DNA of 64,000 nucleotides from Calditrichia bacterium (GCA_050633245.1 JBOEGD010000009.1:96001-160000), one strand, 5' to 3'. Shown: positions 9,127 through 62,096, numbered from the stretch's first letter. Notes: generated by a model from the letters alone, not told the origin. Numbers and translations: made by a program.

Positions 9127-9270
9127 AGGAACCTCCTGTTAAACCCCAAACTGAAAAAGCGTCCTCCAAACTCCCTGTTTAAAGAATACCTGTTACCTCT
9201 AGATTTATATTATTTCATCCTGATCTATAATTGTGCGTGATGAAAGAGTTGATTACCCTAATTTTGGTTA

Positions 9271-9380: not shown

Positions 9381-9411
9381 TACAGTAAATAGCCCAATAA
9401 AGGAGATCTAT

Positions 9412-9693: not shown

Positions 9694-9728
9694 CCATATC
9701 CCATAATCAGAATAAAGAGATTTCACTC

Positions 9729-9752
9729 AAAGGCTCGCTTTTACGAGCCTTT
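9729..9752. terminator. Bidirectional intrinsic terminator
   Basis: AAAGGCTCG-CTTTTA-CGAGCCTTT. Confidence 0.6.
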
Positions 9753-10080
9753 AACATATTCAATCGATAAGCGTGAAACTCATTTAATAAAGTATTCTCC
9801 TGGATGTCTGATTCAAAAATCAGAATGGATGCAATCATTGTTGTAACGAAAAGTTAATACAAGAAGAGGGGGAACGTTCTATTTCTGAAGCTCACTTCCT
9901 GCATTATTGGGGAGTAATTAATAATAGTTCTGCAGCTCATAGATGTCAACCCTTTTCCCTCCACACATACTTTTTTGGTTTGAATTCGAGTTATCGGAAC
10001 ATTTTTTGACTCTCTTGAAATTCTTCAGTAAACTTGTCTAAGAATCTCCCTAGGCCCTATACCTCAACTTGGTAGGTTTT

Positions 10081-10578: not shown

Positions 10579-10626
10579 ACCTGCCATCTCCGAATATTGA
10601 TTCGTTCATCTTATTCCATTTGACTC

Positions 10627-11880: not shown

Positions 11881-11974
11881 ACGCTGTTCCTTGGGGGAGT
11901 AATGTGATTGGATATCCTAATTATGGAGGCAGGGAGACCAAATGCAAATTATTTTTCGAAAGAATTAAGTTTAC

Positions 11975-12320
11975 CATTAACCCGCAATCATAGGATAGAA
12001 CCGAACGCTCTCTCAAAAACATAAGAAATGTTAGCCCCCTTAAAGGACTCCTACTTTCTGTGGAAACTTGAAGAGTAGATCAGGCAATTTATTTATCATT
12101 ACTATCACCAGCGAAATCCTGAGGTAATGGATAATGTCATGCCGGAAAATGGGTATTATTGAAGAAAAAAATGGATTGTAAGCTGACGAGAGAAAATTAA
12201 ACCAGGGGAGAATTCGACTAAAGTAAGGCAACAAAAAAGACAACTGAAAAACTATTAACACATTCACTAACTGTCTCTTAGATTACTAATAATTCTACCC
12301 CATTTTTTTTGATGTCATTC
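11975..12320 (+). mobile_element. Decayed 3' remnant of an IS3/IS481-type DDE transposase
   Basis: Broken frames give PQS*DRTERSLKNIRNV and SYFLWKLEE*IRQFIYHYYHQRNPEVMDNVMPENGYY*RK...REKIK, resembling the integrase-core tail 'PQT.GKIER...KN...Y..W.LE..I..F..YYN..R.H..L.N.TP...Y.GR'. Confidence 0.5.
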
Positions 12321-12387
12321 AACGTTCACTGGCATCCTGGGTGTTTTGTAAGATATAATTATTGTCCATTCCCGATCGGCAGGATTT

Positions 12388-19187: not shown

Positions 19188-20849
19188 TTAATACACATCT
19201 AGCTTATATTGCAGTCTTGCACTACAGTTGCCACTTCCAGTGGTAAGATACTGAGCAATATTCGGATCATCCGGGACATTCGTCCACTCCCCGGAGCTAA
19301 AGCGAAACGTTTTGGTTATACTCTTGGGATTCATATCCGGGTCGTGGCGAGGATCACCGAAAGTTGGGTTGTCCCACTCCGGACTATAGAAGTAAATGTA
19401 GAACTCTTCACCCTCAACCCGATCAACGGTAAAAATAAATTCGTCATTTAGAGATTTTGTTTCGCCAGATGACACTTCCACTGCCCCCGACCAACTATCT
19501 TCACCAATCTTGGTAAATCCTTTACGAGAACCATTTAATCCACAGCTACCGTAGAGATAAAAGTCTCCCGGACCGGCATCACAGTCTCCTATGACGTAAA
19601 ATTCGTCCATTGTTATTTTGACGGTGTTTTTGTTCTGAACGCGAACACATTCGGTTGCAACATAATCCGTGGTGTACCCCAACTTCGCAAGAGAGTTATC
19701 TTTCAGATGAAATACTGAGTAGGCAATCGGAACGCCGGGATTAGTGGTAGAGTAAACCGCATTGGTATCCTGAATAACGCTTTCCAACTGACCTTCCGTA
19801 CCGTTCAGCGTCACCAGCCGAGACGCAACAGAGGCATTTCCGCCGATGGTTACCACCTCAAGCGATGAATTATTCAAAATACGAATATACTCTGATTCCA
19901 GAGATCCGTCGACATCCACGCCTGCAGCATATTTAAGAGCAGCCTCGACGTTAACCCCGGTGGTTTGAACACTGGTATTGGTCTCCATGCGCATCATGAT
20001 AATACGACCGTAGGTAACCGAAGAGACATAGGCCGGTGCATCGGCGCCGGTAAGCGTGTTCTGAACATCAGACAACTCTACATTCTCAGAAAAAACCGCT
20101 TCCGGAGAAGTAGGCGTCGTAAAATCCACGCTGTAAAACCCCTGCTTATAAACCGCCATGCTCACCCACTTCTGTTCGTTACTAAAAAAGTCGAACTGCG
20201 AATTCACCTCACCGCCTGCCCACGCAACGTTCAAACCAACATCGAGCGAAAGCTGCTCAGAACTATAGGCCGTGGTAAATTCGAACGAAGAGTTTGCAGG
20301 ATTCACATAACCTTCCTGATAGGCATTGTTGTTCCACCACTGCAGGGCCTCATCAATCGCAGCAGTGACTGTCGCATTGGTTGGTTCAGAGACTTCCAGA
20401 ACACCATTCTGTCCCATGCCCGGCAGGTTAACGCTCAGCTGCATGGGAGCGCGCGGTAATCCGATTGGTTCCGGCACACCATCGGTAAGACCCTGGTTGG
20501 CTTTTACCAACGCGCCCGGGAAAACAATTCCCTGAGTTGGACGAAGAATGGCAACATTGTCAAAGTTTTGCTTAAGATTATAACTGGTGCGCGTGCAGCT
20601 CTGCTGAAAGTTGCCAACCTGTGAGATTGTCGTGTCGGTATTGCCGGCAGTACGCAGATTGTCATTATTACCAGTATCCTGCACATTGAGCAAAGCCGCT
20701 GAGTCATAGTCCAGGCTGCGCAGATATTGTGTGACTTCACCGCCGCCAACATCACCATCGCTGCTGGTTGGGTTGTTACTACATCCGGCAAAGAGCCCGG
20801 CAATTACGATTGCTCCTACCCACATCCTGTTTTTGAAATGCTGCTTCAT
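19188..20849 (-). CDS. Thiol-activated (cholesterol-dependent) cytolysin-like lipoprotein
   Basis: Lipobox LFAG-C; VFPGALV, YKQ.FYSV, PAYVSSVTYGR, GVPIAY CDC-core motifs; no undecapeptide seen. Confidence 0.88.
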   Translation of the reverse strand: MKQHFKNRMWVGAIVIAGLFAGCSNNPTSSDGDVGGGEVTQYLRSLDYDSAALLNVQDTGNNDNLRTAGNTDTTISQVGNFQQSCTRTSYNLKQNFDNVAILRPTQGIVFPGALVKANQGLTDGVPEPIGLPRAPMQLSVNLPGMGQNGVLEVSEPTNATVTAAIDEALQWWNNNAYQEGYVNPANSSFEFTTAYSSEQLSLDVGLNVAWAGGEVNSQFDFFSNEQKWVSMAVYKQGFYSVDFTTPTSPEAVFSENVELSDVQNTLTGADAPAYVSSVTYGRIIMMRMETNTSVQTTGVNVEAALKYAAGVDVDGSLESEYIRILNNSSLEVVTIGGNASVASRLVTLNGTEGQLESVIQDTNAVYSTTNPGVPIAYSVFHLKDNSLAKLGYTTDYVATECVRVQNKNTVKITMDEFYVIGDCDAGPGDFYLYGSCGLNGSRKGFTKIGEDSWSGAVEVSSGETKSLNDEFIFTVDRVEGEEFYIYFYSPEWDNPTFGDPRHDPDMNPKSITKTFRFSSGEWTNVPDDPNIAQYLTTGSGNCSARLQYKLDVY

Positions 20850-32710: not shown

Positions 32711-35700
32711 TTATTCCTTGTAATTTGGATTCTTGATAAATTCCCCCACAAACTTCCCGTCTTTATCTACTTGCCTGGCACCTAAAATATCTTCCGTTTT
32801 AACACCACCGGGAATTGCAAACTCCTTCTCATAGGGATATGGACTCTTATCACCGAGTGCTTTATTCACGTCGACCCCGCCTTTTGGACGGACAACGTAG
32901 ACATAATTACCTTTCTGTGAGAACTTGGCAGCAATCCCCGGAGCTGATGTTGTAGAGACATAATTACTCGGAGGTTTTATGTTGTTCCTGGCGTGCTTCA
33001 ACACATCCATACTTTCTCCACGCGGCTGGAACCCCTTTTCAAAAACCTCTGAAGGCATACGACGATCTCCGCGAAACAGGTAACGTTTTCCGGAACATAA
33101 CCCATCGACCAGCTGGCTACTTCCTCGAACGGCACCAAGAGCATCGCTGCCACGATCAAGCGTTTTATAGAGCGTTCCCAATCCTGCAGCGCCGGGCGTT
33201 AAAATCCCAACTAGATCAAGCCCAACCGCAGTCCAATTCGAATAACTTGCAGGATCAATCACCAAATCCTTTATGGAAAATCCGAGTGATATGACGTCGA
33301 AGATTGTCTCGAAATATGCACCATCCTGCTCCACTTTGCTAACCGGATCATTCGCCGTAAAAGCATAAGGACTTATTGACAGATAGTCGAGCGCCTTAGG
33401 GTCTGGTGATAACCAGCGTCCCAATGATGGATCGTAATAGCGACGACCAAAACTCAACCAGCCCGTCTCGTCATCACCATGTTGTCCACTAAAACCCGGA
33501 GTTCCGGTCGTGGCACCACTTAAGTAAGACTTGCCGGGCATGAGTTGTCCAAATGGATAGAACTCCATTGCAGCAAGCAGTTCACCATCTTCACTCACAA
33601 CTCGCTTCACTGAACCCTGATAATCACGCAAAAAATAATGCTTAACAGGAGCGATAGTCTCACCCGTTTTGCTGTCAACCTGGGCCGGCAGCCATCTGCC
33701 TTCGACTTTCTCGCCGATAATATTCCAGTGAACCAGCTTTCCATTATGGAATTGACCCAGCGGATGCTTCTTGGCAAAAATTGCCGCCTCACAATACGAG
33801 CCGTTTTTCTTCGCTACACGTTGGTTATCGCGATTATAACTAAACTGAAGCTCGGCTCCGCTAAACGTTTTAACATAAATTGGCCTGTTAAACCAATCAT
33901 AGTCGATTTCCATTGTTGCTGTAGCTTGTTCAATACGAATAATATTGCCATTCGCGTCATACGAGAAGTCACTTGATTCCGCATCCCACTTTTCCTCAGT
34001 TGCATTCACCCGATCCAGAATAGTTTGAATTTGATTCGATTCACCATAGTGATAGTCGAGCCTATCGAGCAACTCGCCTTCGCCGTCATACTTGCGAAAT
34101 CCAAGAATATTGCCACTGGCATCGTAGGAGAAACCATTTAGCTTATAGGCTGACTTTTCTTGCCAAATGCGATCGAACTCAGAGTAGGTTGCAGAACGCA
34201 AGCGGTCGGCGGAATCGAACGCGTAGTCGTATCTTTGTAAAAGCTCATTGTGGTCCAGAAAATCGACTTGATTTATGCGACCATCAGGCGAATAGGCGAA
34301 GCGTTGGAACATGCCATAAGCTGTATTGGTAATCTGCCCTGAAGACACTAACCAGCCACGTAGGTTGTGCTCATAAGGCATTGCAACAGTCGGGGTTGAA
34401 CCATTGGCATATCCCAGACCAATAAAGTTTTGCATGCCTTCTACGGCGTAGTCGTATTTGACATCCAGTTCATGTGAGGTTAAACTCGCTGCAGTTCGCA
34501 CGGCTGCCAGACGATCCCGCTCGTCATAGTCAAAATGGTGGGAATAAAAGTTGTCTCCAGCCTGCACAGTCAGTGAAAGAGGATTGTCTTGCAGATCGTA
34601 GCTTAGTTGAAGATCTGCAAGGGGGATCTCTGCGTTCAGCTTACGTGTTTCGCGCAAATTACCGCGCTCATCGTAAGAGAATAATTCTACCTGCCAAGCC
34701 CCATTCGAGAAATAGGCATGTGCAGTCCGTCTTGAAACGGGAAGGTGATGTGTAAAGGTGGTATACCGGCTGTTCGGGAAAATATTCCACGGTGCAGTGG
34801 TAAAATCCGGCGACATATCATAGCAGTTCACCTCCACCCAATTCTTGTCGTCGTGTTCAAAGAAATAGGATTCGGCCGGGTTCAGCTCATCGAAATCCGC
34901 ATTGGCATGCCCTACCAACTTCAGCCGGTCGAGAAAATCATAGATGTAAAATCGAACAATACCGGCATTGCGCATGTTGGCATCTTGCATAAAACGCAGA
35001 TTTCCATGTGGATCATAGCGATACTGACGCCGTCCGCTATCAATTAGATTATCTTCCATCGGCAGGTTCAGCGTATTGTATTTTTGAGTCATTAGCCAAT
35101 CATTGGCATTGCTTCCGGAAGGCGGTGCGAAGAAGTTTGGTGGACGAATAATGAGTTGATTTCCGGCAGCATCTACATCGGATTGTGATTTTAAGACTGA
35201 GCTGAGTTGCCCGGGATTCCAAAAAGTGACATCGCCGATCACCCGGGCTGGGGCGTTATGCTGTGGATTTAGTCGACGCGCAACAGCCCGAAGCAAATAG
35301 GATCCTGCTGCCAACTCAACTTCCCCCTGCCAATTGCCATCTTCTGAAAGAGACAGAAAGGATACGCTACCGTTAAGATTGGTGATACTAAACTCTCCGC
35401 TCAGGTACGGACCATTAGCGGTGATTGAGCAACTCCAGCCGATACGTTGCGGTTCATCCAGGACGATTAATTTGCTATCCGCCGCCTCACCTTCGTTGCA
35501 ATTTCCGTCATTGTAACAGCTGGCATTGACTTCTGCAGTCGCTTCCGTCGAGCCGGAGAAGAGCTGCGAGCCAACAAGATTGTTCAGTTCGTCGAAGTAG
35601 CTTGCGCGCTCTCGCCCAGCCTCATCACGAGAGTAGTCAGTGCGCAGAAGGATAGACCGCGAAGTTGGATACACTTCGGGGAAGACTTCTGAGGCTTTCT

Positions 35701-38700
35701 GAAATCGCTGCATAAACAGTTGATTTGTGCTTGTTCCACTCTCGGTTGGATAAGCGATACGCTGCGGATTTCCGGTAAATTTCCCGGGATACAGGTATTG
35801 CGTTACTCGATTGGTTTTTTGATCAGAAAGCGTGCCGTCAGCATTGCGACGGTCATAAAGCGAATCGAAATGAACCGGTTGCCCAACCGAACGCGCATAC
35901 GGCAAATATTTGCTGTAGATCCTCCCCTGCAGGTCAAGTTCATTCGTTAAGTAGGTGTTGCGATTGTCCGCTGTTATTACGGTTTGTACTGCCTCGCCTA
36001 AACCATTAGAGAAGACCGTTTCATTACGCTGTTTTGTCGCATCCTGAAAAAATTGCGAAATCACCGAGTTTGGGGAGTGCATTTCTTCCCCGGCATCTCG
36101 ACCATAACTATAGCTATGTTTCGAGATGATTCTGCCAGAGCGATCTTTTATCGTGGTCAACCGCGAAAACGAGTCATAGTTGTATCGCGTTACTATACCG
36201 TTTTCATCTTCAACCGACTCCATGTTAAGAGAGGATTGATTATAATCATACGCTCGAAAAACCTGCCCGGCCATGGATATACCAGTCAAATAAGCATGGC
36301 CGAACTCTTGATGATGAGCCAGATTTGAGAAGTTATTTTCGTTGTTACCATAAAAAAGCGCGAGCTCTTCTCCACGGCCATCCTCAAACAAGACCCGGTT
36401 TCCATTCGAATATTCCAAAACACGAAATCCCAGCTGCCAGTGGGTTCCCGGCATCTCATCCACTTCCCAGGCATTAAACTCTGGTGGAAAAGCTAAATCT
36501 CCGGGTGCTGCAAGATCATAGCGTTCATACAGCCGCCAGGCAGTGGGGGCTTCCCCTTTCTTCGAGTCAATTTCCGGCGTTTCCCGCCATGTTTGACGAT
36601 AGGTACCATGTAAGCTCGTTACCCCAAGTCGATTGTTTTTGCTAAATGCGGTTTCTTCGGCCAATGCCGCAAGCTGATTGCGGCTTCGCATGCCGGTTAT
36701 CTGTTCAGTTTCCCAACTGTTGCCGCCATATTCCGGTATTTGCCAGGCATAACGAAGCTGCTTGTCTATCTTCCACTCTGGTGTGGAAATTGTCTCGCGC
36801 TTTAGCTGACCGGTTTCTTCAATGTATTCCCGCAGAATCGTTTTTGCGCGTACAACATCCGGATTATAGAATTCCTTTTGTTTTTCTTCAATTATATAGC
36901 TTGATGTCTGCCATGCATATGCTTTGTAAGGTAGAAGATCCGCAAGATCCAATACCAGTGCAGCCTTTGAAGCAGATGTGAGATAGTTAAAGTCTGCCGA
37001 AGTCGTGAGCTGGCCTTCACGTGCAGTAGAACGGACAATGGCAGAGCGGACTGCTCCGGCAGGCATTCCGATAGCACCTGCAAAGGCAACCCAGCGCTCG
37101 CTATAAACCGGGGATTGAAATAAAATCGTCCGGCACGAGGAATTGCTCTGATAGTATGTTTTAACAGAAGACGAATCGGACCAGGCTCGACGAATCCATT
37201 CGTACACAACATCCTGCTCACCGCGATTAACCGCCCGAAAGGCATTCGGTTCAATAAAGTGAGAATTGACAAACGGAAGTAGACGAGACGGCATGCAGCC
37301 AATGGTTCCAGGGCCATAGGAAAACTCGCTATACTCTGCATTTCCCATACCGTCCGAGCGCGTAATCCGAGTAACTCGAACTCCCCCCTGTCTACGACTT
37401 CCACCGGCTGGCCAGGCGTCGAAATCAAACACCATCTCGTCATATTGATGCTGCCCGGTAGAAAGGTTGTAGCGCACCCGATCGATGCGAACATCCTGCT
37501 GATCAATCTGATCATTTGAATATCTGTAGCTCTCCCAGCCACCAGTTGGGAAAACCATCTTGCGCAAGCTCCAGGCTGCCGCATCGTTTGGATTTGTGTC
37601 TATGCCAGAACCGGGATGCGGCATGTCATTGTAATAGCCGAGCCCATCGTAGTAGTGATGCGATGGATTAAAACTCCACTCGGGATTACCGGCACTACCC
37701 ACTTCGGGATAAACGAAATCATACCCGGGAAGCGTCTCGCCAGCCGGGTCACGATAGAAAAAACCGTGCAATGTCAGCTTGCCGCGACTTATTCCGCCAG
37801 ACGCCCCCTTGCCCAAAACATAATCGCTCAGTGAATTCCCATGATTCATTTCTACAATTTGGTTGACTTCACCACTGCGTGTGGCTAACTCGATGTGCTT
37901 AAGACGACGATAAAACCGGCTGATATCCTCGGTATTATTTCGCGCATAAACCAAATCGGCATCTTTGCGGTCCGCAACTGTAATAAACTCGGCACGATGG
38001 CTGGGCGTGGTAATAAAACGTAAATAGGTATTCTCGATGGCTTGCTCCGGCCCGGAATTACCAATCGCAACCGGCTCATTTTCATCAAAACCATAGTCGA
38101 AGCGAATCCAATCTGCCAGGCTTTCCAGTGCAGAATAAATATCTGCCGCAGAAGCTGGCTGAGCATCCGGCTTTTGTAATAACAGCCCAATATCACCATG
38201 ATATTCCGGTCCGGCGATAGCAAGCAGGCGCCAGGCATTGGGATGGTAAATCGTTTGTGCCAGGCCGCTAAACGAGCGAAATGCCGCGACTGTCGGGTTG
38301 CCAAACACGTAACGCACATTCTCGTCGGTGGTAATCATAAAACGCGTAATGTATTTTCCGGGGAGCAACGGATGATAGCTTTCACCAGGCCAGGGGTGAT
38401 TTTCACGATCGGTGATTAGCGTCTCGATCTTATAGGGAAGGTGCGTTTCGAGGTAAAATTTTGACGCATTATACGGCGCGCGAAACGATTTGACATTGGT
38501 ATTCTCATTAAAACCGGCAACCGTAGCGCGGCCCATGGGAATCGTACCAATTCCCGGCAGATTTACAAAAAAAGCATCAGGCATTTGAGCAGCCGTAGAC
38601 GGATCATCGACTCGGTCGACACCATAATGCACACCATTTGAAATCAGATTGCCCTTCACATCGCGCGTAATACTTCCGGGGTCAAAATTCCAGCCCAAGC

Positions 38701-38971
38701 CTAACCATGATGCCGTTTGATGATAGCGAATCCCGGCTCGATAGGAAAATTCAATTTCAAAGCTGCGTCCCGGGCTCCCCGGAACGGTTAAGACCGGAAT
38801 CCTTAGATGCAGATCTCCCTTGCTATCGACATTGCCTTCCGCAGGCGTGGCGAATGACCAAACCTCCGGCTGCATGTTAAACTCATTAAATCGTTGAAAA
38901 ACCGGCTGCTGCGCTACAGTGCTAATTGAAAACAGCAAGAGCAACAGTCCACATAGCCAAACAGGTTGCAT
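32711..38971 (-). CDS. Rhs/YD-repeat protein with C-terminal ADP-ribosyltransferase toxin (pertussis-S1/scabin-like fold)
   Basis: Signal peptide; YD repeats; core RYYDPSLGRWLSPDP...SPYAF..NDPV; tip LFRGD, YVSTT, PYEKEF (R-S-E triad). Confidence 0.9.
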   Translation of the reverse strand: MQPVWLCGLLLLLFSISTVAQQPVFQRFNEFNMQPEVWSFATPAEGNVDSKGDLHLRIPVLTVPGSPGRSFEIEFSYRAGIRYHQTASWLGLGWNFDPGSITRDVKGNLISNGVHYGVDRVDDPSTAAQMPDAFFVNLPGIGTIPMGRATVAGFNENTNVKSFRAPYNASKFYLETHLPYKIETLITDRENHPWPGESYHPLLPGKYITRFMITTDENVRYVFGNPTVAAFRSFSGLAQTIYHPNAWRLLAIAGPEYHGDIGLLLQKPDAQPASAADIYSALESLADWIRFDYGFDENEPVAIGNSGPEQAIENTYLRFITTPSHRAEFITVADRKDADLVYARNNTEDISRFYRRLKHIELATRSGEVNQIVEMNHGNSLSDYVLGKGASGGISRGKLTLHGFFYRDPAGETLPGYDFVYPEVGSAGNPEWSFNPSHHYYDGLGYYNDMPHPGSGIDTNPNDAAAWSLRKMVFPTGGWESYRYSNDQIDQQDVRIDRVRYNLSTGQHQYDEMVFDFDAWPAGGSRRQGGVRVTRITRSDGMGNAEYSEFSYGPGTIGCMPSRLLPFVNSHFIEPNAFRAVNRGEQDVVYEWIRRAWSDSSSVKTYYQSNSSCRTILFQSPVYSERWVAFAGAIGMPAGAVRSAIVRSTAREGQLTTSADFNYLTSASKAALVLDLADLLPYKAYAWQTSSYIIEEKQKEFYNPDVVRAKTILREYIEETGQLKRETISTPEWKIDKQLRYAWQIPEYGGNSWETEQITGMRSRNQLAALAEETAFSKNNRLGVTSLHGTYRQTWRETPEIDSKKGEAPTAWRLYERYDLAAPGDLAFPPEFNAWEVDEMPGTHWQLGFRVLEYSNGNRVLFEDGRGEELALFYGNNENNFSNLAHHQEFGHAYLTGISMAGQVFRAYDYNQSSLNMESVEDENGIVTRYNYDSFSRLTTIKDRSGRIISKHSYSYGRDAGEEMHSPNSVISQFFQDATKQRNETVFSNGLGEAVQTVITADNRNTYLTNELDLQGRIYSKYLPYARSVGQPVHFDSLYDRRNADGTLSDQKTNRVTQYLYPGKFTGNPQRIAYPTESGTSTNQLFMQRFQKASEVFPEVYPTSRSILLRTDYSRDEAGRERASYFDELNNLVGSQLFSGSTEATAEVNASCYNDGNCNEGEAADSKLIVLDEPQRIGWSCSITANGPYLSGEFSITNLNGSVSFLSLSEDGNWQGEVELAAGSYLLRAVARRLNPQHNAPARVIGDVTFWNPGQLSSVLKSQSDVDAAGNQLIIRPPNFFAPPSGSNANDWLMTQKYNTLNLPMEDNLIDSGRRQYRYDPHGNLRFMQDANMRNAGIVRFYIYDFLDRLKLVGHANADFDELNPAESYFFEHDDKNWVEVNCYDMSPDFTTAPWNIFPNSRYTTFTHHLPVSRRTAHAYFSNGAWQVELFSYDERGNLRETRKLNAEIPLADLQLSYDLQDNPLSLTVQAGDNFYSHHFDYDERDRLAAVRTAASLTSHELDVKYDYAVEGMQNFIGLGYANGSTPTVAMPYEHNLRGWLVSSGQITNTAYGMFQRFAYSPDGRINQVDFLDHNELLQRYDYAFDSADRLRSATYSEFDRIWQEKSAYKLNGFSYDASGNILGFRKYDGEGELLDRLDYHYGESNQIQTILDRVNATEEKWDAESSDFSYDANGNIIRIEQATATMEIDYDWFNRPIYVKTFSGAELQFSYNRDNQRVAKKNGSYCEAAIFAKKHPLGQFHNGKLVHWNIIGEKVEGRWLPAQVDSKTGETIAPVKHYFLRDYQGSVKRVVSEDGELLAAMEFYPFGQLMPGKSYLSGATTGTPGFSGQHGDDETGWLSFGRRYYDPSLGRWLSPDPKALDYLSISPYAFTANDPVSKVEQDGAYFETIFDVISLGFSIKDLVIDPASYSNWTAVGLDLVGILTPGAAGLGTLYKTLDRGSDALGAVRGSSQLVDGLCSGKRYLFRGDRRMPSEVFEKGFQPRGESMDVLKHARNNIKPPSNYVSTTSAPGIAAKFSQKGNYVYVVRPKGGVDVNKALGDKSPYPYEKEFAIPGGVKTEDILGARQVDKDGKFVGEFIKNPNYKE

Positions 38972-52552: not shown

Positions 52553-52584
52553 GTAAGATATTTGATTAGATAGTAATTGACCAT

Positions 52585-52760
52585 TAATGTCAATTACATG
52601 TTGAAGCTTTGGCTATACTTTAGAGACGAAAATGTCGTGCAGAGCGGAGTCGAAGCGCACATTTTCGTTAATTGAGCTGCTAAATGGTTTGTCTAAGCGC
52701 CTCGACTCCGCTCTGCGTGACAAAAATATTGATATAGATTTCAAACCGTAATTCGCATCA
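52585..52760. mobile_element. MITE/REPIN-like element
   Basis: Imperfect terminal inverted ends (TAATGTCAATTACATGTTGAA / TTCAAACCGTAATTCGCATCA) and an internal inverted pair GTCGTGCAGAGCGGAGTCGA...TCGACTCCGCTCTGCGTGAC. Confidence 0.6.
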
Positions 52761-52788
52761 TTGTTAATAAAGGGTGATTGGGAGATAA

Positions 52789-53232
52789 ATGACTATTGAA
52801 ACTTTTTCTGCAATCGCGCAGATCATAAGTTCAACGGTTGTGATCATATCAATTTTAGTTGCTCTAAGGACGCTAAGCGAAATGAAAAACGCAAGATATT
52901 TAGAGGCAATGCTTAGGATATATGATATGATTGGATCGAAAGAAGCACGAACGGACCGAAAATACGTTTGCAATAAGTTGCCAAACAACCCTGGGAAGTT
53001 AAAGGCAAAGGATTGGGAGATTGTGAACAGGATATCAACTCAATTGGACCGTATTGCAAACTTGGTTCATCATAAGTTAGTACCTGAAAAATATCTTCTT
53101 CACACACATCGGCATCTTTTCATTAAGATGTGGGAACAGCTTGAGGAGCACATAGTTTATTGCCGTTGCAAGGAAGGCGCTGAAAATCACGTTAAAAAAT
53201 TTGAAAAATTCTATAACTTCTGCAAAAATTAA
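52789..53232 (+). CDS. DUF4760-like single-TM helical protein
   Basis: N-terminal TM, 'LD.IA.LV....VP', 'W..L...I...R' pattern; AT-rich. Confidence 0.65.
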   Translation: MTIETFSAIAQIISSTVVIISILVALRTLSEMKNARYLEAMLRIYDMIGSKEARTDRKYVCNKLPNNPGKLKAKDWEIVNRISTQLDRIANLVHHKLVPEKYLLHTHRHLFIKMWEQLEEHIVYCRCKEGAENHVKKFEKFYNFCKN

Positions 53233-53237
53233 TAGAG

Positions 53238-53301
53238 CCTGGTGTGCATGGCAGCCATTGGGGCCGGAGTATACCTGGGGAGTATGTTGGTGCGGTTTTA
53301 G
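53238..53301 (+). repeat. Diverged duplicate of the last 20 codons + stop of fabH
   Basis: Reads LVCMAAIGAGVYLGSMLVRF* vs fabH LVCMAAFGAGFTWGSVLVRF* (52489..52552). Confidence 0.85.
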
Positions 53302-53419
53302 GAAGCTAGTCTTGTATTTGCACGTAATAAAAGAAACATTTCAAATTTCTTAAAAGATACCAGCTAACTAACTATATAAGTTGATTTAAATAATCGTAAC
53401 TTTAAAAGACGATTTATTC

Positions 53420-56400
53420 ATGAGAACAACCCTAAAAGTTATTGCCCTATTTTTTTCCCTCTTAATAATAACTTTTTTACAGATCGAAACAAATGAGAAC
53501 AAAAAAAGACGCCTAGCTTCTAGACTTAATGTATCATCCAACCTTGAATTAGCAGAACATTACTTTCTCCATGCCAAATATGATAGCTCACTTCAGATCT
53601 ACTCCGAACTAGTAAACTCACCAACATTGCCTCCTAAAGAGAGTATATCCTATCAGATTAAGATTGCCAATCTAAATAGTTTAAAAGGCGAACACGAATT
53701 GTCACTTCGAATTCTTGAAGAGCTAATTTGCTCTGTTAGAAGTGAAAGTGAATATTTTAAGAAAGAGCTTGAACAACTATATAGGATATATGGGCAAACT
53801 CTAAAAAGAGACGGAGAACACGAAAAGTCCTTTGAGTTTCATCGCAAAGCGCTCATGCTTTCGAGAAGGATTTATGGAGGTAATAGCCTTGAGATTGCAA
53901 AGACCTATAACAATCTTGCAATTTCATTCTTTTATATCGGAAAGTATGATAGCTCAAAGTATTATTTTAGCAAAGCCTTAGAAATAAGAACCGTAAAGTT
54001 AGGCTTGTCAAATTTAGAGGTCGCAAAACAATACAACAACCTAGGCATAATTAGTTTTCAAGCAAAAGAATATGAATTAGCATTGAGTTATTTAAATACA
54101 TCCTTAATGATAAGGAAGCGCCTTCTTAAATATCAACATCCATTAATTGCCAGCAACCTATTAAATATTGGCAATATTTATCTAACCCTCGGAAGCTTTG
54201 AATTGGCTTTATATTATCTAAACGAGTCTAATAAAATTCGACTGTCAATATTTGACAAAAACCATACATCACTTACTAAGGGATACAATTCAATAGGTGT
54301 CGCCTTTAAGAATCTTGGCCAAATTGGTAAAGCACGCAAAAACTTTCAGAGGGCATATCAAATTTCGACAGTCAACTACCGTAGACCACCCCGGAATTCA
54401 GCATACTATCTTTCAAATATTGGGGAGTCATATGCACTAGAAAACAAACATCAAATGGCTATAGAGTATCTTGAAAGAGCTAACAAAATTTTATCAAAAG
54501 CTCCACAAAGTTCTATTCCCGAAAGAGTCGAAACATGTCTACTTCTTGCCGAAAGTTACTCAGCCATATCTGACTCACAACAAGTAAACCGAAGCTTTAA
54601 CCTCGCTTACAAGCTAATCAATGCTACCTCCCCCGTAGATCATTCCATACTCGCAAAGTTCTTTTTAATTAAGGGCAAACATTACTTCAAGTCCCAACGC
54701 CTAAAAAAAGCAGACAAATATATTCAGCAAGCCGTGGATTTGGTCGAGCTTTCTTTAAACGGACAGTTAAACACTGATCATAGAAGTATTTTTACTTCGG
54801 TTAACCCAAAGCTTAAACTGCAAATTTTAAAGATTCAAAGGCAACTTTGCACTTTAAAATTATCAAAACAAAAAATCAAAAAGAATTCCAATAGCCACCG
54901 CTCTTTGGATAATTCTAAAGTTAGGAAGCAACTTCAAAGAAATGAGATGCAAACACTTATTACCTTTCAAAATCTTAAAACCTTTTTTCCAATCCTAACT
55001 ACAAGAAAAGACTTAGCCACAGGAAGAAATAACTCCAGAGAGCGGCTTCTAGCTACACGGGAAGATATACCTACTGAAGAGACTGATTCAAATAGAACTG
55101 AGTTTAGTGATCTCTGTCTGTTCATAGCTGCGACAAAACAACCAGACTTATTCTCTCATCGAGAGATGATATCAGCATTACAAAAACTTAAACTAACAGA
55201 TTCATTGCTCATAAAGTTACAAATACTTAGATCAGAAATTCAAAGGCTATCAGTTGAAATAGATAACTTTGATCCAACTTCAAATACTCCTTCATCAGCT
55301 TCGACAAACAGGCTGGAAAACGTACTTAAATTCGATGTCTTAAGCAGTTCCTTTTTCAATAGTTTAAGTAGTAGAGGTCCAACACGGTTTTCGATTAGAA
55401 ATAGGATCAATGGACTTTCACAGGAGCTTGTAAATCTTAATAGAGATACAGCAATACTAGATTTCTATTGGACTACTTCAGGCGTTTATGTTTTTGTTAT
55501 ACTAACTGACCGAATCGAAAGTTTTTTTATATCTAACTCAACCATTTCGAAGAAGAAAATAGCTACATTTCGCTCATCTGCGCTACGTTTGTCTCTTAAA
55601 AGAAACTTTCAAAGCTCTTTTTCAGAGCTATATAAATCTATTTTTGAAACTATTCACGTTAAAATAAGAAATTGTAGCGAACTAATCGTTATTCCCGATG
55701 GCCCTTTAAATTCGATTCCATTTGAAGCCTTCATTTCAAATCATAATAAGAGCAAAAGTGAAAATTTACTAGACCGCTTCAATATACGGTACAACTATTC
55801 GCTACCACTTGCGATTCGATCTCTAAGAGCCAAAAGTTTGAATAGAAAAAATGAAATAATCTCCTTTGCTCCAGCGTTTAAAACGATCCCCGCATCTTTC
55901 TCTTCTATGCTAAAACGTTACTGGTGGCCAGATCAAAGCCCAACTAATATTAGAAACAATAATATTAAAGCACTGCCACAATCAGCTAATGAAGTAACAA
56001 AGATAGCTTCGTTGTACAGCATTGCACAAAAATCAAATTTAATCTTTTTAAACGAGAACGCAACGGAGACACAATTCAAAAAGCTTGCATCAAGCGCTAA
56101 CACCATTCACCTTGCTACTCACAGCATCATCGACTCTGAAAATCCCGACAGCTCGGCCATCCTCTTTTATCTGCCCTCCGACAGCACTGCTGAAGACGAC
56201 GGCTACCTCTACCCACAGGAAATAGAATCCCTATATATACCGGCAGACCTGGTTGTCTTAAGCTCCTGCGACGGCGCAGCCGGCACTGAAGTTCCCGGTG
56301 AGGGCATCTTCACTTTGGCGCGCAGCTTTCTCATGGCTGGGGCAAATTCAGTAGTGGCATCCTTGTGGAAGGTCCCGGATGAGTTCACCAAAAAGCTGAT

Positions 56401-56536
56401 GGTAAAGTTTCATAGCTACCTGCTGGCGGGTAAAAGCAAAGCCGCTGCCCTGCGTCAGGCCAAGCTGGACTTGTTAGCAGAAAACCCGGAGCTGCCACCA
56501 AAGTTTTGGGCGGGATTTATTTTGATTGGTAGTTGA
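53420..56536 (+). CDS. TPR-repeat CHAT domain protein
   Basis: A..YNNL TPRs; IPDGPL..IPFEA, IHLATHS, VVLSSC, ASLWKV, FWAGF. Confidence 0.92.
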   Translation: MRTTLKVIALFFSLLIITFLQIETNENKKRRLASRLNVSSNLELAEHYFLHAKYDSSLQIYSELVNSPTLPPKESISYQIKIANLNSLKGEHELSLRILEELICSVRSESEYFKKELEQLYRIYGQTLKRDGEHEKSFEFHRKALMLSRRIYGGNSLEIAKTYNNLAISFFYIGKYDSSKYYFSKALEIRTVKLGLSNLEVAKQYNNLGIISFQAKEYELALSYLNTSLMIRKRLLKYQHPLIASNLLNIGNIYLTLGSFELALYYLNESNKIRLSIFDKNHTSLTKGYNSIGVAFKNLGQIGKARKNFQRAYQISTVNYRRPPRNSAYYLSNIGESYALENKHQMAIEYLERANKILSKAPQSSIPERVETCLLLAESYSAISDSQQVNRSFNLAYKLINATSPVDHSILAKFFLIKGKHYFKSQRLKKADKYIQQAVDLVELSLNGQLNTDHRSIFTSVNPKLKLQILKIQRQLCTLKLSKQKIKKNSNSHRSLDNSKVRKQLQRNEMQTLITFQNLKTFFPILTTRKDLATGRNNSRERLLATREDIPTEETDSNRTEFSDLCLFIAATKQPDLFSHREMISALQKLKLTDSLLIKLQILRSEIQRLSVEIDNFDPTSNTPSSASTNRLENVLKFDVLSSSFFNSLSSRGPTRFSIRNRINGLSQELVNLNRDTAILDFYWTTSGVYVFVILTDRIESFFISNSTISKKKIATFRSSALRLSLKRNFQSSFSELYKSIFETIHVKIRNCSELIVIPDGPLNSIPFEAFISNHNKSKSENLLDRFNIRYNYSLPLAIRSLRAKSLNRKNEIISFAPAFKTIPASFSSMLKRYWWPDQSPTNIRNNNIKALPQSANEVTKIASLYSIAQKSNLIFLNENATETQFKKLASSANTIHLATHSIIDSENPDSSAILFYLPSDSTAEDDGYLYPQEIESLYIPADLVVLSSCDGAAGTEVPGEGIFTLARSFLMAGANSVVASLWKVPDEFTKKLMVKFHSYLLAGKSKAAALRQAKLDLLAENPELPPKFWAGFILIGS

Positions 56537-56653
56537 AACATAGGGAACAAGAGATGAGCAATGAGTTGTTTTGGCGAAGGTCTAAATAAGGTAGATGAAA
56601 TACAAGTCCCACGGGATCATTTCTGACCCCATGGGGTGTTTGCTACCAATACT

Positions 56654-59533
56654 TTATTCAATCATTAACATTTTACGCGTTTGAATAATGTTTCCGGCCT
56701 CTAGTCGCAAGAAGTAAATACCACTGGCAACGCGTTGACCGCTATCATCAGTCCCATTCCACGATATGCTGTATTCACCGGCTTCAACACTCTCCTCAAC
56801 CAAGATATTCACTTTCTGCCCCAGCGCATTATAAATTATAAGACTGATGTCGGAACGCTCTGCCAGAGCGAAACGAATGGTTGTGGAAGGATTGAATGGG
56901 TTTGGATAATTACCAATAATACTGGTAGACAAACTGGTATTATTCGTAATACTATTCTTAGCCTTCGGATTGTACTGAACCTGAAACTCATGTTGTGCGC
57001 AATTATCCGTTGATGTATCAGTTATTAGCAGTTTTACGGTCAGATCGGTGCCATCCATTGTGACCGACTGTGTTGTACCCGTTCCAAGAGTCACCCAACT
57101 TCCTCCATCCTCTTTAAAAGACCACTGATAGGTATAGCTCCCTGATCCCCCGGCAACGCTAGACGTATAGGTAGCACTTTGCCCTGAACCAAGCTCAGCT
57201 GCTCCGCTAATAGATGCAGTATAAGATTGTCCGATATAGGGCCAGCTATTGTAGTTCGCCAGTGGATCGGGACGCTCCAAATAACCATATTTTTTTACCC
57301 ACTCGATCATACTTACCAAACTGGTGACGGATGAATTTCCGTAATGCCCGTCTGGAAAGGCACCGGTAGGTGAGTTTAGATCGCTTCGGGAATCCCAAAC
57401 AGATTTTATGTTCGGGTCATACGCATAAATAGTGTCTGCAAAAATTTCCCAACCAGGATATTCCGTAGTATCTGCATGAGCAGCCTCACTGCCATAACGT
57501 TTTGCCCAGTAAATAAAGTCTTTGCTATCGTTCCAGCCTTCGGACGCGGCTTCGGCTGAATCGGGCAGATGTGCATCCGGAAACAATGCTCTTAGGTCTG
57601 AACGGGAGCGCCATATGAGATGGATAGGTGAACGAGTAGTGCCAACTTCATTGTAAAGGGCAGGCGTATACACATATTCGCCATGCCCGTTGTCTAATAT
57701 CCTGGTTGCATTAATAAATTCAACCTGCGAATCGTCTATTTCTGTCGTTAGTAAAGCCAGATAAACACTGTCCGACATCCAGTTGCTGCTTTCTGTCAAG
57801 GAATAGTCCGAATAATTGCTCAGGTAATCCGGCGTATGTTCAATCATATAATCCGTAACAATGTCGCTGGAGATGCTCGGATAGCTATCATTGGGATTAG
57901 AATAGTTTTTGTTCATTATTGCCTTCGGCATATAAAAGGTATCTCGCCCATTTATCACTCCCGAGTCCACAGGAATGGTAGAAAAATAAGCAGAGCTATA
58001 GTGAATAGCTCTAGTCGCTGCGCTTGGAGATTGTCGACTCGGAGAGCTCGGTGTAGTAAGTGTTTTAATGGCATCTGTAAAGCTATGATACCAGTCATTT
58101 GTACCCGAAGTATCAATGATTGTCAGATTTCCAACTAACAAATCATCTTTAGTAATGCTAGATACGGGGTCAGGTCTCTCCCCATCTGAAGTAGCCCAAA
58201 ATTGCCAGCGAGCCTGTACATTGCCCCAACCAAAAATTACATGATAATCAGCTCCTTCATCATAAAATGCCATCATCTGGTCTTCAAAGTCATCAGATAA
58301 ATCATTTGCGGCTACTTCATGAGAACTTGCAAGTGGATCCACCATCGGATCTGTCACGGCAAATCCTTTGGTTGACAAATGCCAATTTGTTTCTGAAGAG
58401 AATCCTCTACGAGTATGGATACTTCCAGGTTGATCATCCCAGTATTCGCAAATCGAACGAGAGAAATCGGCGCTAAAATTAAAATAATCTCTAAAACCTG
58501 GTATATCGGCAACCCGGAGTCCATAAGCTTTTTCCATGAAAGGAGTTGCATCGAAATAACCGCGAAAATCAAGCCGCTTATCGTAAATACTTCCGAACTG
58601 AATTCCCATACGAAAGCCGTTAGTATTAGTTATGTCAGCAAACTCATTTGCAAGTGAGAGCAACGCCTCTGATTTAAAGCTTAGCCAATCGATACGCCCT
58701 GGTAGTAGATCATAGCCATCAGAATCTACCAATTCAAGATGCCAATTGTAATTGGCTGGATCTATAGTAAATGAATTGATTAGTGTATCACCCCATGCAG
58801 CTTCAAGTCGTGATATATCATTATCATATTTTGCCTTTAGGTACGTTATAAATGCAGTCTTCTCAAGAGCTGAGTACCCCGTCATCCGCCAGTCAGAATC
58901 AAGTTCAAATTCAGCAGTCAAGTTGATGCTCGGTGTAAATTCAATCGGTCGACGAGCTCGGCCAGAGTGATGGTTAGTGCCTTCGTAATCATATAGTAAT
59001 GGCGTATTCACCACTAATGTATCTTTGACGTGTAATACAACCTTTTCGTAGAATATTTTCATCCTATCTGTTCCAAGAGAAGATGAGGGGTGAAAATATC
59101 GATCAGACGTTCCATCACTTCCTTTTGCAATTATTTCTCCAAATTTATCCGTGTGAAATTCTTTGTCTTGATACTGCCCTTCCGAATCAGGCTCAGCCCA
59201 ATCAGGTAGAAATGATCCCATGCGAACGAGAATGTTCACATCAAGCCCTGCGTTTAAGATTTTCAATAGTGCAGCATCAAAATCAGTCCAATTGAATACA
59301 TTACGAGTCGGTTCAATGTCACTCCAAATTGCATAGAGCTGCACACCTGTTGCCCCCCAGTCATCTCGTATCGCCTCGAGCCAAAGTTGTCCGGTATCCC
59401 CTCCAAAGTCCTCGTTAATAGTCCATGGAAATGCTGTAAAATATACTCCATAAGCTTCGGAGTCTGCAGTTTTGGACTGCGCCTGCGCCATTCCGGATAG
59501 GAATAGCAGTGTTAAAAAAAATCGTTTAATCAT
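56654..59533 (-). CDS. Secreted GH42/beta-galactosidase-like TIM-barrel protein + PKD-like + FlgD/T9SS-like domain
   Basis: WSDIEP...FNW..FD..L, F..YLK.KY..I..L..AWG; SYTYQW; NYPNPFNP. Confidence 0.75.
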   Translation of the reverse strand: MIKRFFLTLLFLSGMAQAQSKTADSEAYGVYFTAFPWTINEDFGGDTGQLWLEAIRDDWGATGVQLYAIWSDIEPTRNVFNWTDFDAALLKILNAGLDVNILVRMGSFLPDWAEPDSEGQYQDKEFHTDKFGEIIAKGSDGTSDRYFHPSSSLGTDRMKIFYEKVVLHVKDTLVVNTPLLYDYEGTNHHSGRARRPIEFTPSINLTAEFELDSDWRMTGYSALEKTAFITYLKAKYDNDISRLEAAWGDTLINSFTIDPANYNWHLELVDSDGYDLLPGRIDWLSFKSEALLSLANEFADITNTNGFRMGIQFGSIYDKRLDFRGYFDATPFMEKAYGLRVADIPGFRDYFNFSADFSRSICEYWDDQPGSIHTRRGFSSETNWHLSTKGFAVTDPMVDPLASSHEVAANDLSDDFEDQMMAFYDEGADYHVIFGWGNVQARWQFWATSDGERPDPVSSITKDDLLVGNLTIIDTSGTNDWYHSFTDAIKTLTTPSSPSRQSPSAATRAIHYSSAYFSTIPVDSGVINGRDTFYMPKAIMNKNYSNPNDSYPSISSDIVTDYMIEHTPDYLSNYSDYSLTESSNWMSDSVYLALLTTEIDDSQVEFINATRILDNGHGEYVYTPALYNEVGTTRSPIHLIWRSRSDLRALFPDAHLPDSAEAASEGWNDSKDFIYWAKRYGSEAAHADTTEYPGWEIFADTIYAYDPNIKSVWDSRSDLNSPTGAFPDGHYGNSSVTSLVSMIEWVKKYGYLERPDPLANYNSWPYIGQSYTASISGAAELGSGQSATYTSSVAGGSGSYTYQWSFKEDGGSWVTLGTGTTQSVTMDGTDLTVKLLITDTSTDNCAQHEFQVQYNPKAKNSITNNTSLSTSIIGNYPNPFNPSTTIRFALAERSDISLIIYNALGQKVNILVEESVEAGEYSISWNGTDDSGQRVASGIYFLRLEAGNIIQTRKMLMIE

Positions 59534-60046
59534 GCGAATAAGCCTCCTAAAATCAAGTTCCAGTTAGTTGAATTCCCCAACTCCATACCAAAACCGATTT
59601 TTTTTCCTGGTATACGATACCTCCTTCTCCTTATAAGGTTTAATGGCTCTGAGAATTTTGACATGTGGGCTTGAGTACAACGTTTTAATGTCCCATGACC
59701 GATTATTTGGGATATAAAATAGCGCTCTCGAGCCCGGTTTTTTTGGCGCTCGCAGTAGAACTAGACATGTTGACTTTTGCTGTCTTTGATATTTTGGCAG
59801 ACAGATCCGTACGACAACTCCAAAACCGTAAGCAGGTCAATCAGTAGCGATTAGATTGAGGAAAAAGTATCAATGGAAACCTTGAAAAAATTTTCAAGGA
59901 AAGCAAGACATTTCTTTTTATATACCTGTTTTTAAACAACTTGTAAATATTTATCCAGTGGTTTTGTAGCCGGGTATTGACATCTCGTTTTTATCTGACA
60001 GACAACGGTGACAAGGTTTGTAGATTCCGCTTTCCTATCGATTTCG

Positions 60047-60103
60047 CAAAGCCCGCAGCTGCCACCAAAGTTTTGGGCGGGGTTTATTTTGGTTGGAAAT
60101 TGA
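60047..60103 (+). repeat. Orphan copy 2 of CHAT gene 3' end
   Basis: QSPQLPPKFWAGFILVGN*; contains GCTGCCACCAAAGTTTTGGGC. Confidence 0.9.
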
Positions 60104-60142
60104 ACCAGTCTTCAGAACACAGAATAAAAAGCAGGAAACTCT

Positions 60143-61297
60143 TTATTCTGGTCGTATCCAATCTAAATAGTTTTCATGATGAACGATTTTAAACTCTGAA
60201 TGTTGATAGGTGTCCAGCCAAATTTTTGGCGCTCGCGCCTTCGCCCTCGGATTCCACTTGAACTCATAGCCAAAGAGTCTCCCTTCCCTCTCCTCAACCC
60301 AATCAATTTCCTGCTGATCATAGGTTCGCCAAAAATAGTTATTGACAATCATACCGCTGTAAAGCTGGTGTTTTATTCTCTCGCTGATAATATAATTCTC
60401 CCAAAGCATGCCAATATCATTACGCAGCTCAAGAGGATTCATATTCGCAATCAAAACATTGCGCAAACCATTATCATAAAAGTACCATTTGTTCTTCTTT
60501 GCAACTTCTTTGCGCAAATTTCGACTAAACCCGCCAACTCTATGCAACACAAAGACCTTTGAAAGAAGATCAAGATATTTTTCCACTGTGTTCTTCGTCA
60601 GAGACAGCGTATTTCCCAACTCTGCCAGCGACACTTCATTACCAATCTGAAACGCAATAAGCCGCAGAAGACTTAGTATCTTATCGGAATTTTTAATATT
60701 CTCAAATGCCAGTATATCCCTCAATAGATAAGAGTTCACAATTTCGCTGAGGTAGGCGGCCTTCTCGTCATTATTATTGAGATGGACGAGCTCGGGATAG
60801 CTACCGTAAACAAGGCGCTGCCGTAAGTTGTCTCTTTTTGAAACGGAATCTTCAATTTGATCGTACTCAGAGTCAGAGAGTGAGAGCAACGTAAAGGTCT
60901 TTTTTCTACCAGTAAGCGGCTCCCCGGTATATTTACTGATGTCAAAGGCAGAGGAGCCTGTCACCAAAATTCGAATGCCGTCTATTTCATCAACCATCAG
61001 TTTCAGAATGTTGCCGATTTCCGGCACTTTCTGCGCCTCATCGATAAGCACGATGCGCTTATCCCCGAGCAAATTTTTATAATTCTGCACGCTCCGCCTG
61101 GCAAGCACTTCCTGAACGGCAAAGTCTTCGCCATTAAGCAGCATATGCGGCTCATCCAGCTTCTCAATAATTTGCTGAATTAGAACCGTTTTACCCACCC
61201 GTCTTGGCCCAAGCAGAATAACGGCCTTATTGGGCGTCAAACTTTGAAGAACTTGATCTTCTATAGATCTTTTTAAGATTAAATTTGGCATTTTCAT
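60143..61297 (-). CDS. AAA_14 ATPase with DUF4143 domain
   Basis: GPRRVGKT, IDEAQ, TGSS, K.YFYDNG, EIDWV...EFKW. Confidence 0.93.
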   Translation of the reverse strand: MKMPNLILKRSIEDQVLQSLTPNKAVILLGPRRVGKTVLIQQIIEKLDEPHMLLNGEDFAVQEVLARRSVQNYKNLLGDKRIVLIDEAQKVPEIGNILKLMVDEIDGIRILVTGSSAFDISKYTGEPLTGRKKTFTLLSLSDSEYDQIEDSVSKRDNLRQRLVYGSYPELVHLNNNDEKAAYLSEIVNSYLLRDILAFENIKNSDKILSLLRLIAFQIGNEVSLAELGNTLSLTKNTVEKYLDLLSKVFVLHRVGGFSRNLRKEVAKKNKWYFYDNGLRNVLIANMNPLELRNDIGMLWENYIISERIKHQLYSGMIVNNYFWRTYDQQEIDWVEEREGRLFGYEFKWNPRAKARAPKIWLDTYQHSEFKIVHHENYLDWIRPE

Positions 61298-61362
61298 CGA
61301 CTAAATTTAGCTAAAAACAGTCAATAAGTCTACTTTTTTTAGTTTTTTTTGGAATCATGAAG

Positions 61363-61419
61363 GAAAACCCTCGGCTGCCACCAAAGTTTTGGGCCCGGTT
61401 TATTTTAATTGGCAACTAA
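61363..61419 (+). repeat. Orphan copy 3 of CHAT gene 3' end
   Basis: ENPRLPPKFWARFILIGN*; same 21-bp core. Confidence 0.9.
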
Positions 61420-61690
61420 CATAAGTGGATGGAACGAAAAAGAAATAAAGTAAAATACTTGGTGGCACACATGCGCTGCATGAAGTGCGAAAAAATGTCG
61501 ATCAGTATTTTGCTCACAGACAGACCTCACAAAAATTGGATAAAAATGGTCCATACAAAACTCAGAAACAAACGAGCAGCACAACAGAAGGTCAAAATTT
61601 GCCCGATTGCCTCATTGCCAAATGCTGACGATCTTTTCACTTTCCCTATTGTTTTCCGAAAATCAGCATGTTATATTCAGTCCGCTAAAC

Positions 61691-61773
<83 letters not shown>

Positions 61774-61789
61774 CGAATCAAATAAAATC

Positions 61790-61813
61790 AGGCGCTTAAC
61801 GGCGCCTTTTTTT
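61790..61813 (+). terminator. Intrinsic terminator after tRNA-Leu(TAG)
   Basis: AGGCGC-TTAACG-GCGCCT followed by a T-run. Confidence 0.75.
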
Positions 61814-62096
61814 ATTGCAAAAATCTCCCCTTTTCTCCTCAAAACTGCTCTGCTTGTGCAATACTGTGCTCAACTTGACTGAAACATCTTGAGTTTTCGG
61901 AAATTCAACTCTCTAGTTTAGCGTGTACCAAGTAAATAATCTTCCCACAACTTGCCTGAGAGGCTCCCTTTCCTTAATCGGGAAGCCTTCCTTTTATGCT
62001 ACATAGATATCGGTTATTGTTTGAGGGTTCTCATTTTAAAACTACAAAGCATGTTTTCCAGAAACGTGGTATGGAGTCATTTATTGGGGGTAAAAA

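Follow-up and report, generated by a model that had tools for sequence, protein, structure and literature searches.

In a 64,000-nucleotide stretch of the genome of a Calditrichia bacterium (GCA_050633245.1, JBOEGD010000009.1:96001-160000; hereafter the window, which corresponds to C9:96001-160000 of a 6.35-Mb assembly in 59 contigs), a gene for a TPR-CHAT protease is followed by two further copies of its own last 19 codons, and one gene on the opposite strand lies in each of the intervals between successive copies. We suggest that this arrangement arose when a single reusable site received two insertions in series, each with duplication of the target; the crossover would lie in a conserved core, the outer segment would have arrived first and the enzyme would act in trans. 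We put the probability of this reading at about 0.5. The case belongs to a known and mechanistically unexplained kind of insertion, and what is new about it is the use of one site twice, by unrelated cargoes, around a conserved core. A first-pass annotation of the same DNA had described an integron-like array in which single genes were serially captured at the 3′ end of the CHAT gene, by a trans-acting recombinase or by homology. That interpretation is partly supported: it is right in outline, as serial capture at the CHAT 3′ end is still the best reading, and wrong in the family to which it assigned the locus.

The repeat is local, sharply bounded and unique. As first reported, the 21-mer GCTGCCACCAAAGTTTTGGGC occurs exactly at 56491, 60058 and 61374 on the + strand; a search of the window at up to three mismatches gave no other match, with none expected from 100 shuffles, and across the genome the three copies are found at this locus alone. 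A repeat finder returned a single direct-repeat family of about 57–60 nt, at 56481-56540, 60048-60107 (88%) and 61364-61423 (78%), with spacings of 3567 and 1316. Translation confirmed that each copy is a 57-nt frame closed by a stop codon, reading ENPELPPKFWAGFILIGS, QSPQLPPKFWAGFILVGN and ENPRLPPKFWARFILIGN before TGA, TGA and TAA, respectively. Only 10–16 of 40 positions agree between copies on either flank, and the second and third copies, which we call the orphans, start within about 2 nt of the same repeat position and lie in frames of 34 codons from stop to stop. In the whole genome, an nhmmer profile of the three copies gave three matches at E<=3e-17 and a next match at 0.88, and neither this search, a fuzzy search nor a six-frame search for the C-terminal peptide motif found further copies.

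The first-pass annotation had recognized that homology reaching far upstream of the orphans would instead mark them as decayed tandem CHAT genes. When the CHAT gene was compared with 56537-62000 by tblastn and blastn, the repeat pieces alone were recovered, and no homology was found upstream of the orphans. For this reason it is excluded to a near certainty that three CHAT paralogues once stood here in tandem and that the copies are what remained after their bodies had been lost by deletion or overwriting. Such an origin would draw on the fact that PxxWAxFxLxG, which the repeat encodes, is the conserved C-terminal motif of CHAT domains; it sits poorly with orphan starts that coincide so closely, with the intact cargo genes that fill the intervals, and with the ends of the remaining CHAT genes in the genome, which the six-frame motif search found to be quite different. 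An in-frame ATG stands before copy 3 and opens a 20-codon mini-ORF (open reading frame) at 61358-61419 (MKENPRLPPKFWARFILIGN, then stop), and an in-frame GTG stands 31 codons ahead of the stop of copy 2; both start codons are probably coincidental.

The differences between the copies are unevenly distributed. Of the 57 sites, 14 are variable, and yet the copies share an unbroken invariant run of 21 (P=0.0075 under random placement of the variable sites); among third codon positions, 0 of the 7 in this core vary, against 6 of the 12 that lie in the arms (Fisher p=0.034). The inferred changes are silent or stop-preserving in 8 of 15 cases, against 22–29% expected (P=0.01–0.03), an excess that falls short of the "largely synonymous or conservative" changes first described, in that "largely synonymous" is too strong. 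The conserved core is harder to explain by decay alone and points to a role at the level of the DNA, which would most simply be that of the place of crossover.

Table 1. Features of the repeat locus and its immediate surroundings (positions of the window)
Feature	Position	Strand	Remarks
Low-GC block	52553..56051	+	DUF4760 gene and first 877 CHAT codons; GC3 (G+C content at third codon positions) 0.30
TPR-CHAT protease gene, docking-site host	53420..56536	+	1038 aa; Pfam CHAT E=2.8e-56, residues 735-1038; TPR families
Repeat copy 1	56480..56536	+	the gene's own last 19 codons and TGA
Invariant 21-nt core of copy 1	56491..56511	+	cores of the other copies at 60058-60078 and 61374-61394
Inner cassette, 3.5 kb	56537..60046		117 nt, one gene, 514 nt of non-coding upstream DNA
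GC-rich hairpin and T run, terminator-like	56608..56635		listed for the - strand; lies where the CHAT and cargo-1 genes converge
Cargo 1, secreted protein with type IX secretion system (T9SS) C-terminal sorting domain	56654..59533	-	959 aa; Por_Secre_tail, FlgD_ig, TIGR04183
Repeat copy 2, orphan	60047..60103	+	7 differences from copy 1; TGA end
Outer cassette, 1.26 kb	60104..61362		39 nt, one gene, 65 nt
Cargo 2, AAA_14 + DUF4143 ATPase-nuclease	60143..61297	-	384 aa; Pfam AAA_14 1.1e-25, DUF4143 1.9e-40
Repeat copy 3, orphan	61363..61419	+	11 differences from copy 1; TAA end
tRNA-Leu(tag)	61691..61774	+	whole; 271 nt past copy 3; shares nothing with the repeat

Each interval between copies contains one long ORF, on the - strand in both cases (Table 1), and, as the first-pass annotation had it, this gene comes with its upstream region; both cargo genes are intact and oppositely oriented to the CHAT gene. 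In cargo 1, the T9SS domain is firm (Por_Secre_tail at 30.8 bits against a cut-off of 27, with TIGR04183 in agreement), whereas the label "GH42-like" that this gene had been given does not hold: the Glyco_hydro_42 match covers 33 residues and, at 19.8 bits, lies under its cut-off of 21, so that the N-terminal part of the protein has no family assignment. Relatives of cargo 1 over residues 9-642 were found in 2 of 40 related genomes, at 41–45% identity. The 514 nt upstream of it hold no credible ORF, and in eight frames no Pfam match at E<=1 bar one due to chance. Cargo 2 was correctly named as an AAA-DUF4143 protein. It matches PDLC04789, the PADLOC model for PDC-S01, over positions 2–373 of 375 (E=2.9e-155, 514.9 bits), and its relatives are patchily distributed: 23 of 41 genomes contain them, a single genome giving as many as 17 matches; the best match, at 61%, belongs to a different family from that of the host. 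A search of the PDB gave no sequence relatives for either cargo.

No recombinase is linked to the locus. The absence of an integrase from the window, noted at the outset, extends to all 61 ORFs of the window and of 20 kb beyond it, none of which matched an integrase, resolvase or transposase family of Pfam, and no recombinase relic was detected in 10 non-coding frames of the locus (E<=1). The search for a co-occurring recombinase that the first-pass annotation had envisaged was more productive at the level of the genome, which has six Phage_integrase-family and three resolvase-family matches, all of them on other contigs. The unlinked recombinases of the genome include two large serine recombinases and a small one, as well as four tyrosine recombinases that are not of the Xer type.

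The integron comparison fares less well. Integrons comprise the integrase IntI, an attI site and attC sites, the last being imperfect palindromes that fold as single-strand hairpins. The locus does present an array of units between repeats, with one gene per interval and three direct copies. In the whole genome, no match to the integron integrase model TIGR02249 reached the cut-off of 265 bits (best 83.3 bits), and attC-like folding is absent from the repeat, as six DNA folds (three copies on two strands) gave z-scores of 0.86, -1.12, 1.43, 0.79, 0.27 and 0.87 against shuffles. Judged by its sequence, the locus is not an integron, because the genome has no IntI and the repeat no attC-like fold. 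It is likewise highly improbable that an integron integrase encoded elsewhere serves the locus, whether as a true integron or as an integrase-less attC cluster (CALIN). The short direct repeats that separate single genes in the array are what such a reading has to offer; it would have to accommodate, besides the results just given, a repeat that is the coding end of a gene, cargo that is reverse-oriented, faces away from the host gene and has upstream regions of its own, and a total of three copies at a single locus.

We propose that two single-gene segments were inserted successively into the same target of about 57 bp, formed by the last 19 CHAT codons, and that on the far side of each insert an extra copy of the target would have remained, the outcome termed "insertion with long target duplication". 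Since the stop codon is part of the repeat and forms its end, the CHAT gene is kept whole throughout. By the likeliest route, incoming DNA that was probably circular and carried a copy of the CHAT gene end would have recombined with the gene end in the chromosome through one crossover inside the identical 21-bp core. The outer cassette, with its PDC-S01-type ATPase-nuclease, is probably the older, since copies 1 and 2 differ from each other at 7 sites and each of them from copy 3 at 11; the inner cassette, with the T9SS protein, would have come later and displaced the outer one outward. The activity responsible would be encoded outside the locus; it may belong to a recombinase encoded elsewhere or to the host's own recombination, working on the short core. 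The double use by unrelated cargoes points to a property of the site together with a trans-acting activity, and not to a cargo-specific trick.

Repeat-flanked DUF4143 genes recur in other genomes. Our survey covered 41 loci with 46 DUF4143 genes from relatives, 36 of these genes having at least 500 nt on each side, and the controls were 250 random size-matched ORFs in the genome studied here (G000), among which three were positive; one of the three was the window's own gene, leaving 2 of 249. A direct repeat in the flanks that scored above every control was found for 9 of 35 DUF4143 genes in other genomes. Without one relative, G040, the figure is 4 of 27 (p about 0.001 against the 2 of 249 control ORFs), a comparison in which the control rate comes from a different genome and the related genomes are not independent samples. 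These repeats are unrelated to one another in sequence and length, and those of G039 (36 nt) and G001 (20 nt, exact) occur in their own genomes solely as the flanking pair. Two DUF4143 units of relative G018 are insertions relative to G016, a genome of the same genus; the unit on contig C1 has a 136-nt repeat, and the intergenic DNA there has diverged too far to show whether this repeat had served as the target.

The survey also bears on what the DUF4143 protein might do. One could suppose that it is itself the insertion enzyme, breaking the target so that repair duplicates about 57 bp, with a later reopening that captures a second gene. DUF4143 is listed in the PD-(D/E)XK nuclease superfamily according to PMC3424549, flanking repeats are enriched around DUF4143 genes, and double-strand breakage is suggested in PMC2853133 as a property common to restriction-modification (R-M) genes with long duplications; the double use of one site would also be accounted for. 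We hold this to be distinctly improbable all the same, as 26 of the 35 DUF4143 genes have no flanking repeat, cargo 1 lacks a nuclease and has orthologues around which no repeats stand, and an invariant 21-nt core is not to be expected of a simple duplication in place that then decays neutrally. It is a bolder idea, and quite a doubtful one, that AAA_14-DUF4143 (PDC-S01) may be a one-gene selfish element which inserts itself with a long target duplication and keeps the site open for unrelated genes. If that were true, AAA_14-DUF4143 would be a minimal, integrase-free counterpart of the integron, and the locus would show its first captured passenger. A literature search, comprising full texts for DUF4143 and titles on long target duplication, found no published link between DUF4143 and such insertion.

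Among the remaining candidates from the survey and its controls, a control ORF with a comparable score, C2:76102, was set aside as one of a pair of paralogues that share an Lcl_C end, and not an insertion scar. At G000:C2:72000-82000, positions 4011-5531, these adjacent genes, TIR-Lcl_C and EAD8-Lcl_C, have in common an 85-nt repeat that lies downstream of the stop codons and a 27-nt repeat inside their 3′ ends, and an EAD8-CHAT-TIR gene adjoins them; by sequence comparison the repeats are a partial duplication between paralogues. In G018, positions 6690-12390 of C17:42000-60000 are an insertion of about 6 kb relative to G016, made up of hairpin-rich units of about 263 nt, with a TPR gene on one side and an aminotransferase gene on the other; it also holds two small genes besides a DUF4143 gene, and a 33-mer of its repeat occurs five times in G018 at up to three mismatches, always at that locus. 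In G040, a non-coding repeat of about 125 nt often stands beside accessory genes, including DUF4143 genes and an insertion sequence (IS) transposase, for example at G040:C1:4368000-4387999, 8691-14135, and looks like a family of miniature inverted-repeat transposable elements (MITE) or of the repetitive extragenic palindromic (REP) type.

A different history would make the three copies att scars of cis-mobilizable elements (CIMEs), in which two integrase-bearing elements sat in tandem at the CHAT 3′ end and decayed to one cargo gene each plus their att repeats. Direct repeats that stem from a protein gene's 3′ end, with an identical core, diverged arms and an intact target gene, would all be expected of such scars; the most diverged copy is the one farthest from the gene, as in streptococcal CIMEs, and the arrangement also fits the tandem tycheposons separated by partial tRNAs that are described in bioRxiv 10.1101/2020.12.28.424599. 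We nonetheless think this history rather unlikely. There is no integrase, relaxase or relic of either in or near the units. The outer unit consists of an intact gene plus 39 and 65 nt, and two independent, near-perfect trimmings would be required. No element carrying the repeat sequence, such as might serve as an attP-like partner, was found in the genome, in viral contigs, plasmids or phages, nor was there a match to a degenerate peptide-level pattern of the repeat in 185,579 species genomes. Finally, the lack of relationship in sequence and length among the repeats of DUF4143 genes elsewhere argues against one dedicated pair of att site and integrase. It is because of these unrelated repeats and the missing integrase trace that we prefer serial insertion with target duplication.

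Among 40 related genomes the best relative of the CHAT protein has 27–34% identity, for its last 154 residues the best relative among 5.8 billion protein clusters has 47–51%, and a search of species genomes with the CHAT protein gave no match. These relatives are all too distant for a strain comparison. In 15 genomes of the family, a search for the 21-mer at up to three mismatches gave three-mismatch matches alone, at about the rate of the reversed control. A match to the 21-mer on metagenome contig L022 was dismissed as due to chance, as it lies inside an unrelated minus-strand ORF and shows no similarity in its flanks, and two 71-codon frames in relative G007 that resembled orphan CHAT ends proved to be truncations at contig ends. 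Four further short frames in relatives match the CHAT end weakly (E 0.09–0.95).

Several points weigh against serial insertion with target duplication, in addition to the origin of the control rate and the relatedness of the genomes surveyed. The argument for insertion comes from a single genome, and neither an empty site nor a circle or a different cargo was seen. The five repeat-flanked positives of G040 were rejected and carry no weight, their 125-nt repeat being dispersed in at least 42 copies. The repeats at G018:C17 were likewise rejected as a target duplication: they are local, but they arrived together with the inserted DNA, as G016 has an empty site without them, and not every repeat-flanked DUF4143 gene carries a target duplication. 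Neither of the two orthologues of cargo 1, in G015 and G010, has flanking repeats. For efficient RecA-type recombination, an identity of 21 nt is of borderline length or too short. The surplus of silent changes, moreover, fits imported gene ends and duplication in place alike, because a functional copy gathers silent changes in either model.

The host gene and its surroundings have a history of their own. The CHAT gene is intact, with both the His (IHLATHS) and the Cys (LSSCDG) motifs present in its translation, and it is a compositional chimera: its 3′ part of 161 codons, which includes copy 1, has a GC3 of 0.60 and adjoins the low-GC block of Table 1, with a change point (permutation p<=0.0005) close to the catalytic His motif, at about nt 56051, and both GC3 values lie beyond the 1st–99th percentile range of the genome's long ORFs. 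This pattern suggests that an allele may have been replaced through recombination at the conserved motif. An epimerase-fabH block that is conserved in 3 of the 5 relatives examined ends just upstream of the CHAT region, and the genes after fabH differ in every one of these relatives, so that no ancestral state can be derived. Given this variability downstream of fabH and the chimeric CHAT gene, the docking site lies in a recombination-prone, flexible stretch. On the other side, the tRNA-Leu that the first-pass annotation placed after the last copy is indeed there, and an Rfam scan found this tRNA alone.

Elsewhere in the window, the first 15 kb contain a cluster of conflict-type genes, in which two pentapeptide-repeat and TIR proteins and a second, weak CHAT protein are encoded at 2455-3585, 10630-11880 and 12388-14607. 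The 553-aa product of the gene at 19191-20849 (-) contains a thiol-activated cytolysin domain of full length (E=4.9e-78), which is unusual outside Firmicutes, and a 2086-aa RHS-repeat protein at 32714-38971 (-) ends in a Scabin-like/enterotoxin-A-type ADP-ribosyltransferase domain, a polymorphic-toxin architecture. A self-BLAST of the genome listed 60 pairs of other local direct repeats; non-coding examples of 60–100 nt and 82–99% identity lie at C11:217662-220841, C11:96620-100184 and C31:33556-39501.

The locus bears on the question of how defence-type genes pass singly from one genome to another when no transposase or integrase is at hand, and several known systems can be held against it. 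Tycheposons and other tRNA-targeting islands differ from it, as the repeat is not a tRNA, the sole tRNA nearby is whole and outside the array, and no integrase is present. The e14 and phage 21 prophages insert in icd, bringing a phage-borne replacement for its 3′ end. With these the locus shares a site within the 3′ end of a protein gene, an orphaned displaced end and replacement differences that are mostly silent; the icd insertions are, in contrast, whole prophages with an integrase, and their duplicated segment is much longer. Like integron cassettes, the units are single genes between short direct repeats that would have been captured serially at one end, and unlike them they have no IntI and no attC hairpin, use a coding end as their site and carry reverse-oriented cargo that appears to be self-promoted.

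Streptococcal CIMEs come closer. They are described in PMC7563491 as att-flanked, integrase-less units of 1.2–13 kb, arrayed in tandem at a protein gene's 3′ end, the most decayed being farthest away, and are there defined as derived by deletion from integrative and conjugative elements (ICEs) or integrative and mobilizable elements (IMEs), beside which they are found. Both have direct repeats that come from the 3′ end of a target gene left intact, and in both the units lack integrase, relaxase and conjugation genes. In the present locus, which belongs to a different phylum, there is no ICE, IME, integrase, relic or partner element with the site.

With PDC-S01 (AAA_14 + DUF4143, COG1373) the likeness is that of cargo 2, which matches the model over its full length. 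PDC-S01 is a candidate defence system only, and its PADLOC entry is silent on gene movement. We know of no defence test of PDC-S01.

The closest likeness is to R-M genes, for which insertion with long target duplication has been known since 2000. According to Furuta, Abe and Kobayashi (Nucleic Acids Res 2010; PMC2853133), who extend the work of Nobusato et al. (2000), such genes insert with unique target duplications of 46–423 bp, some of them overlapping the 3′ end of a neighbouring gene and with no mobility gene nearby, and the mechanism is unexplained. By the same measures, the inserts here are small (3.5 and 1.26 kb, under 20 kb) and include a conflict-type gene, the direct repeat is unique in the genome and, at 57 nt, longer than 30 bp, there is no integrase, transposase or other mobility gene nearby, and the repeat overlaps the 3′ end of the adjacent gene. 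What sets the locus apart from the R-M inserts is its cargo, which consists of a T9SS protein and a PDC-S01-type ATPase-nuclease, and a target that served twice, for unrelated cargoes, and now stands in three copies; these copies are old and diverged (78–88%) around an invariant core, in a single genome. The locus adds the same scar around a very common candidate defence gene, and two unrelated cargoes at one site with a conserved 21-bp core, and it offers a defined short sequence and a candidate enzyme for work at the bench.

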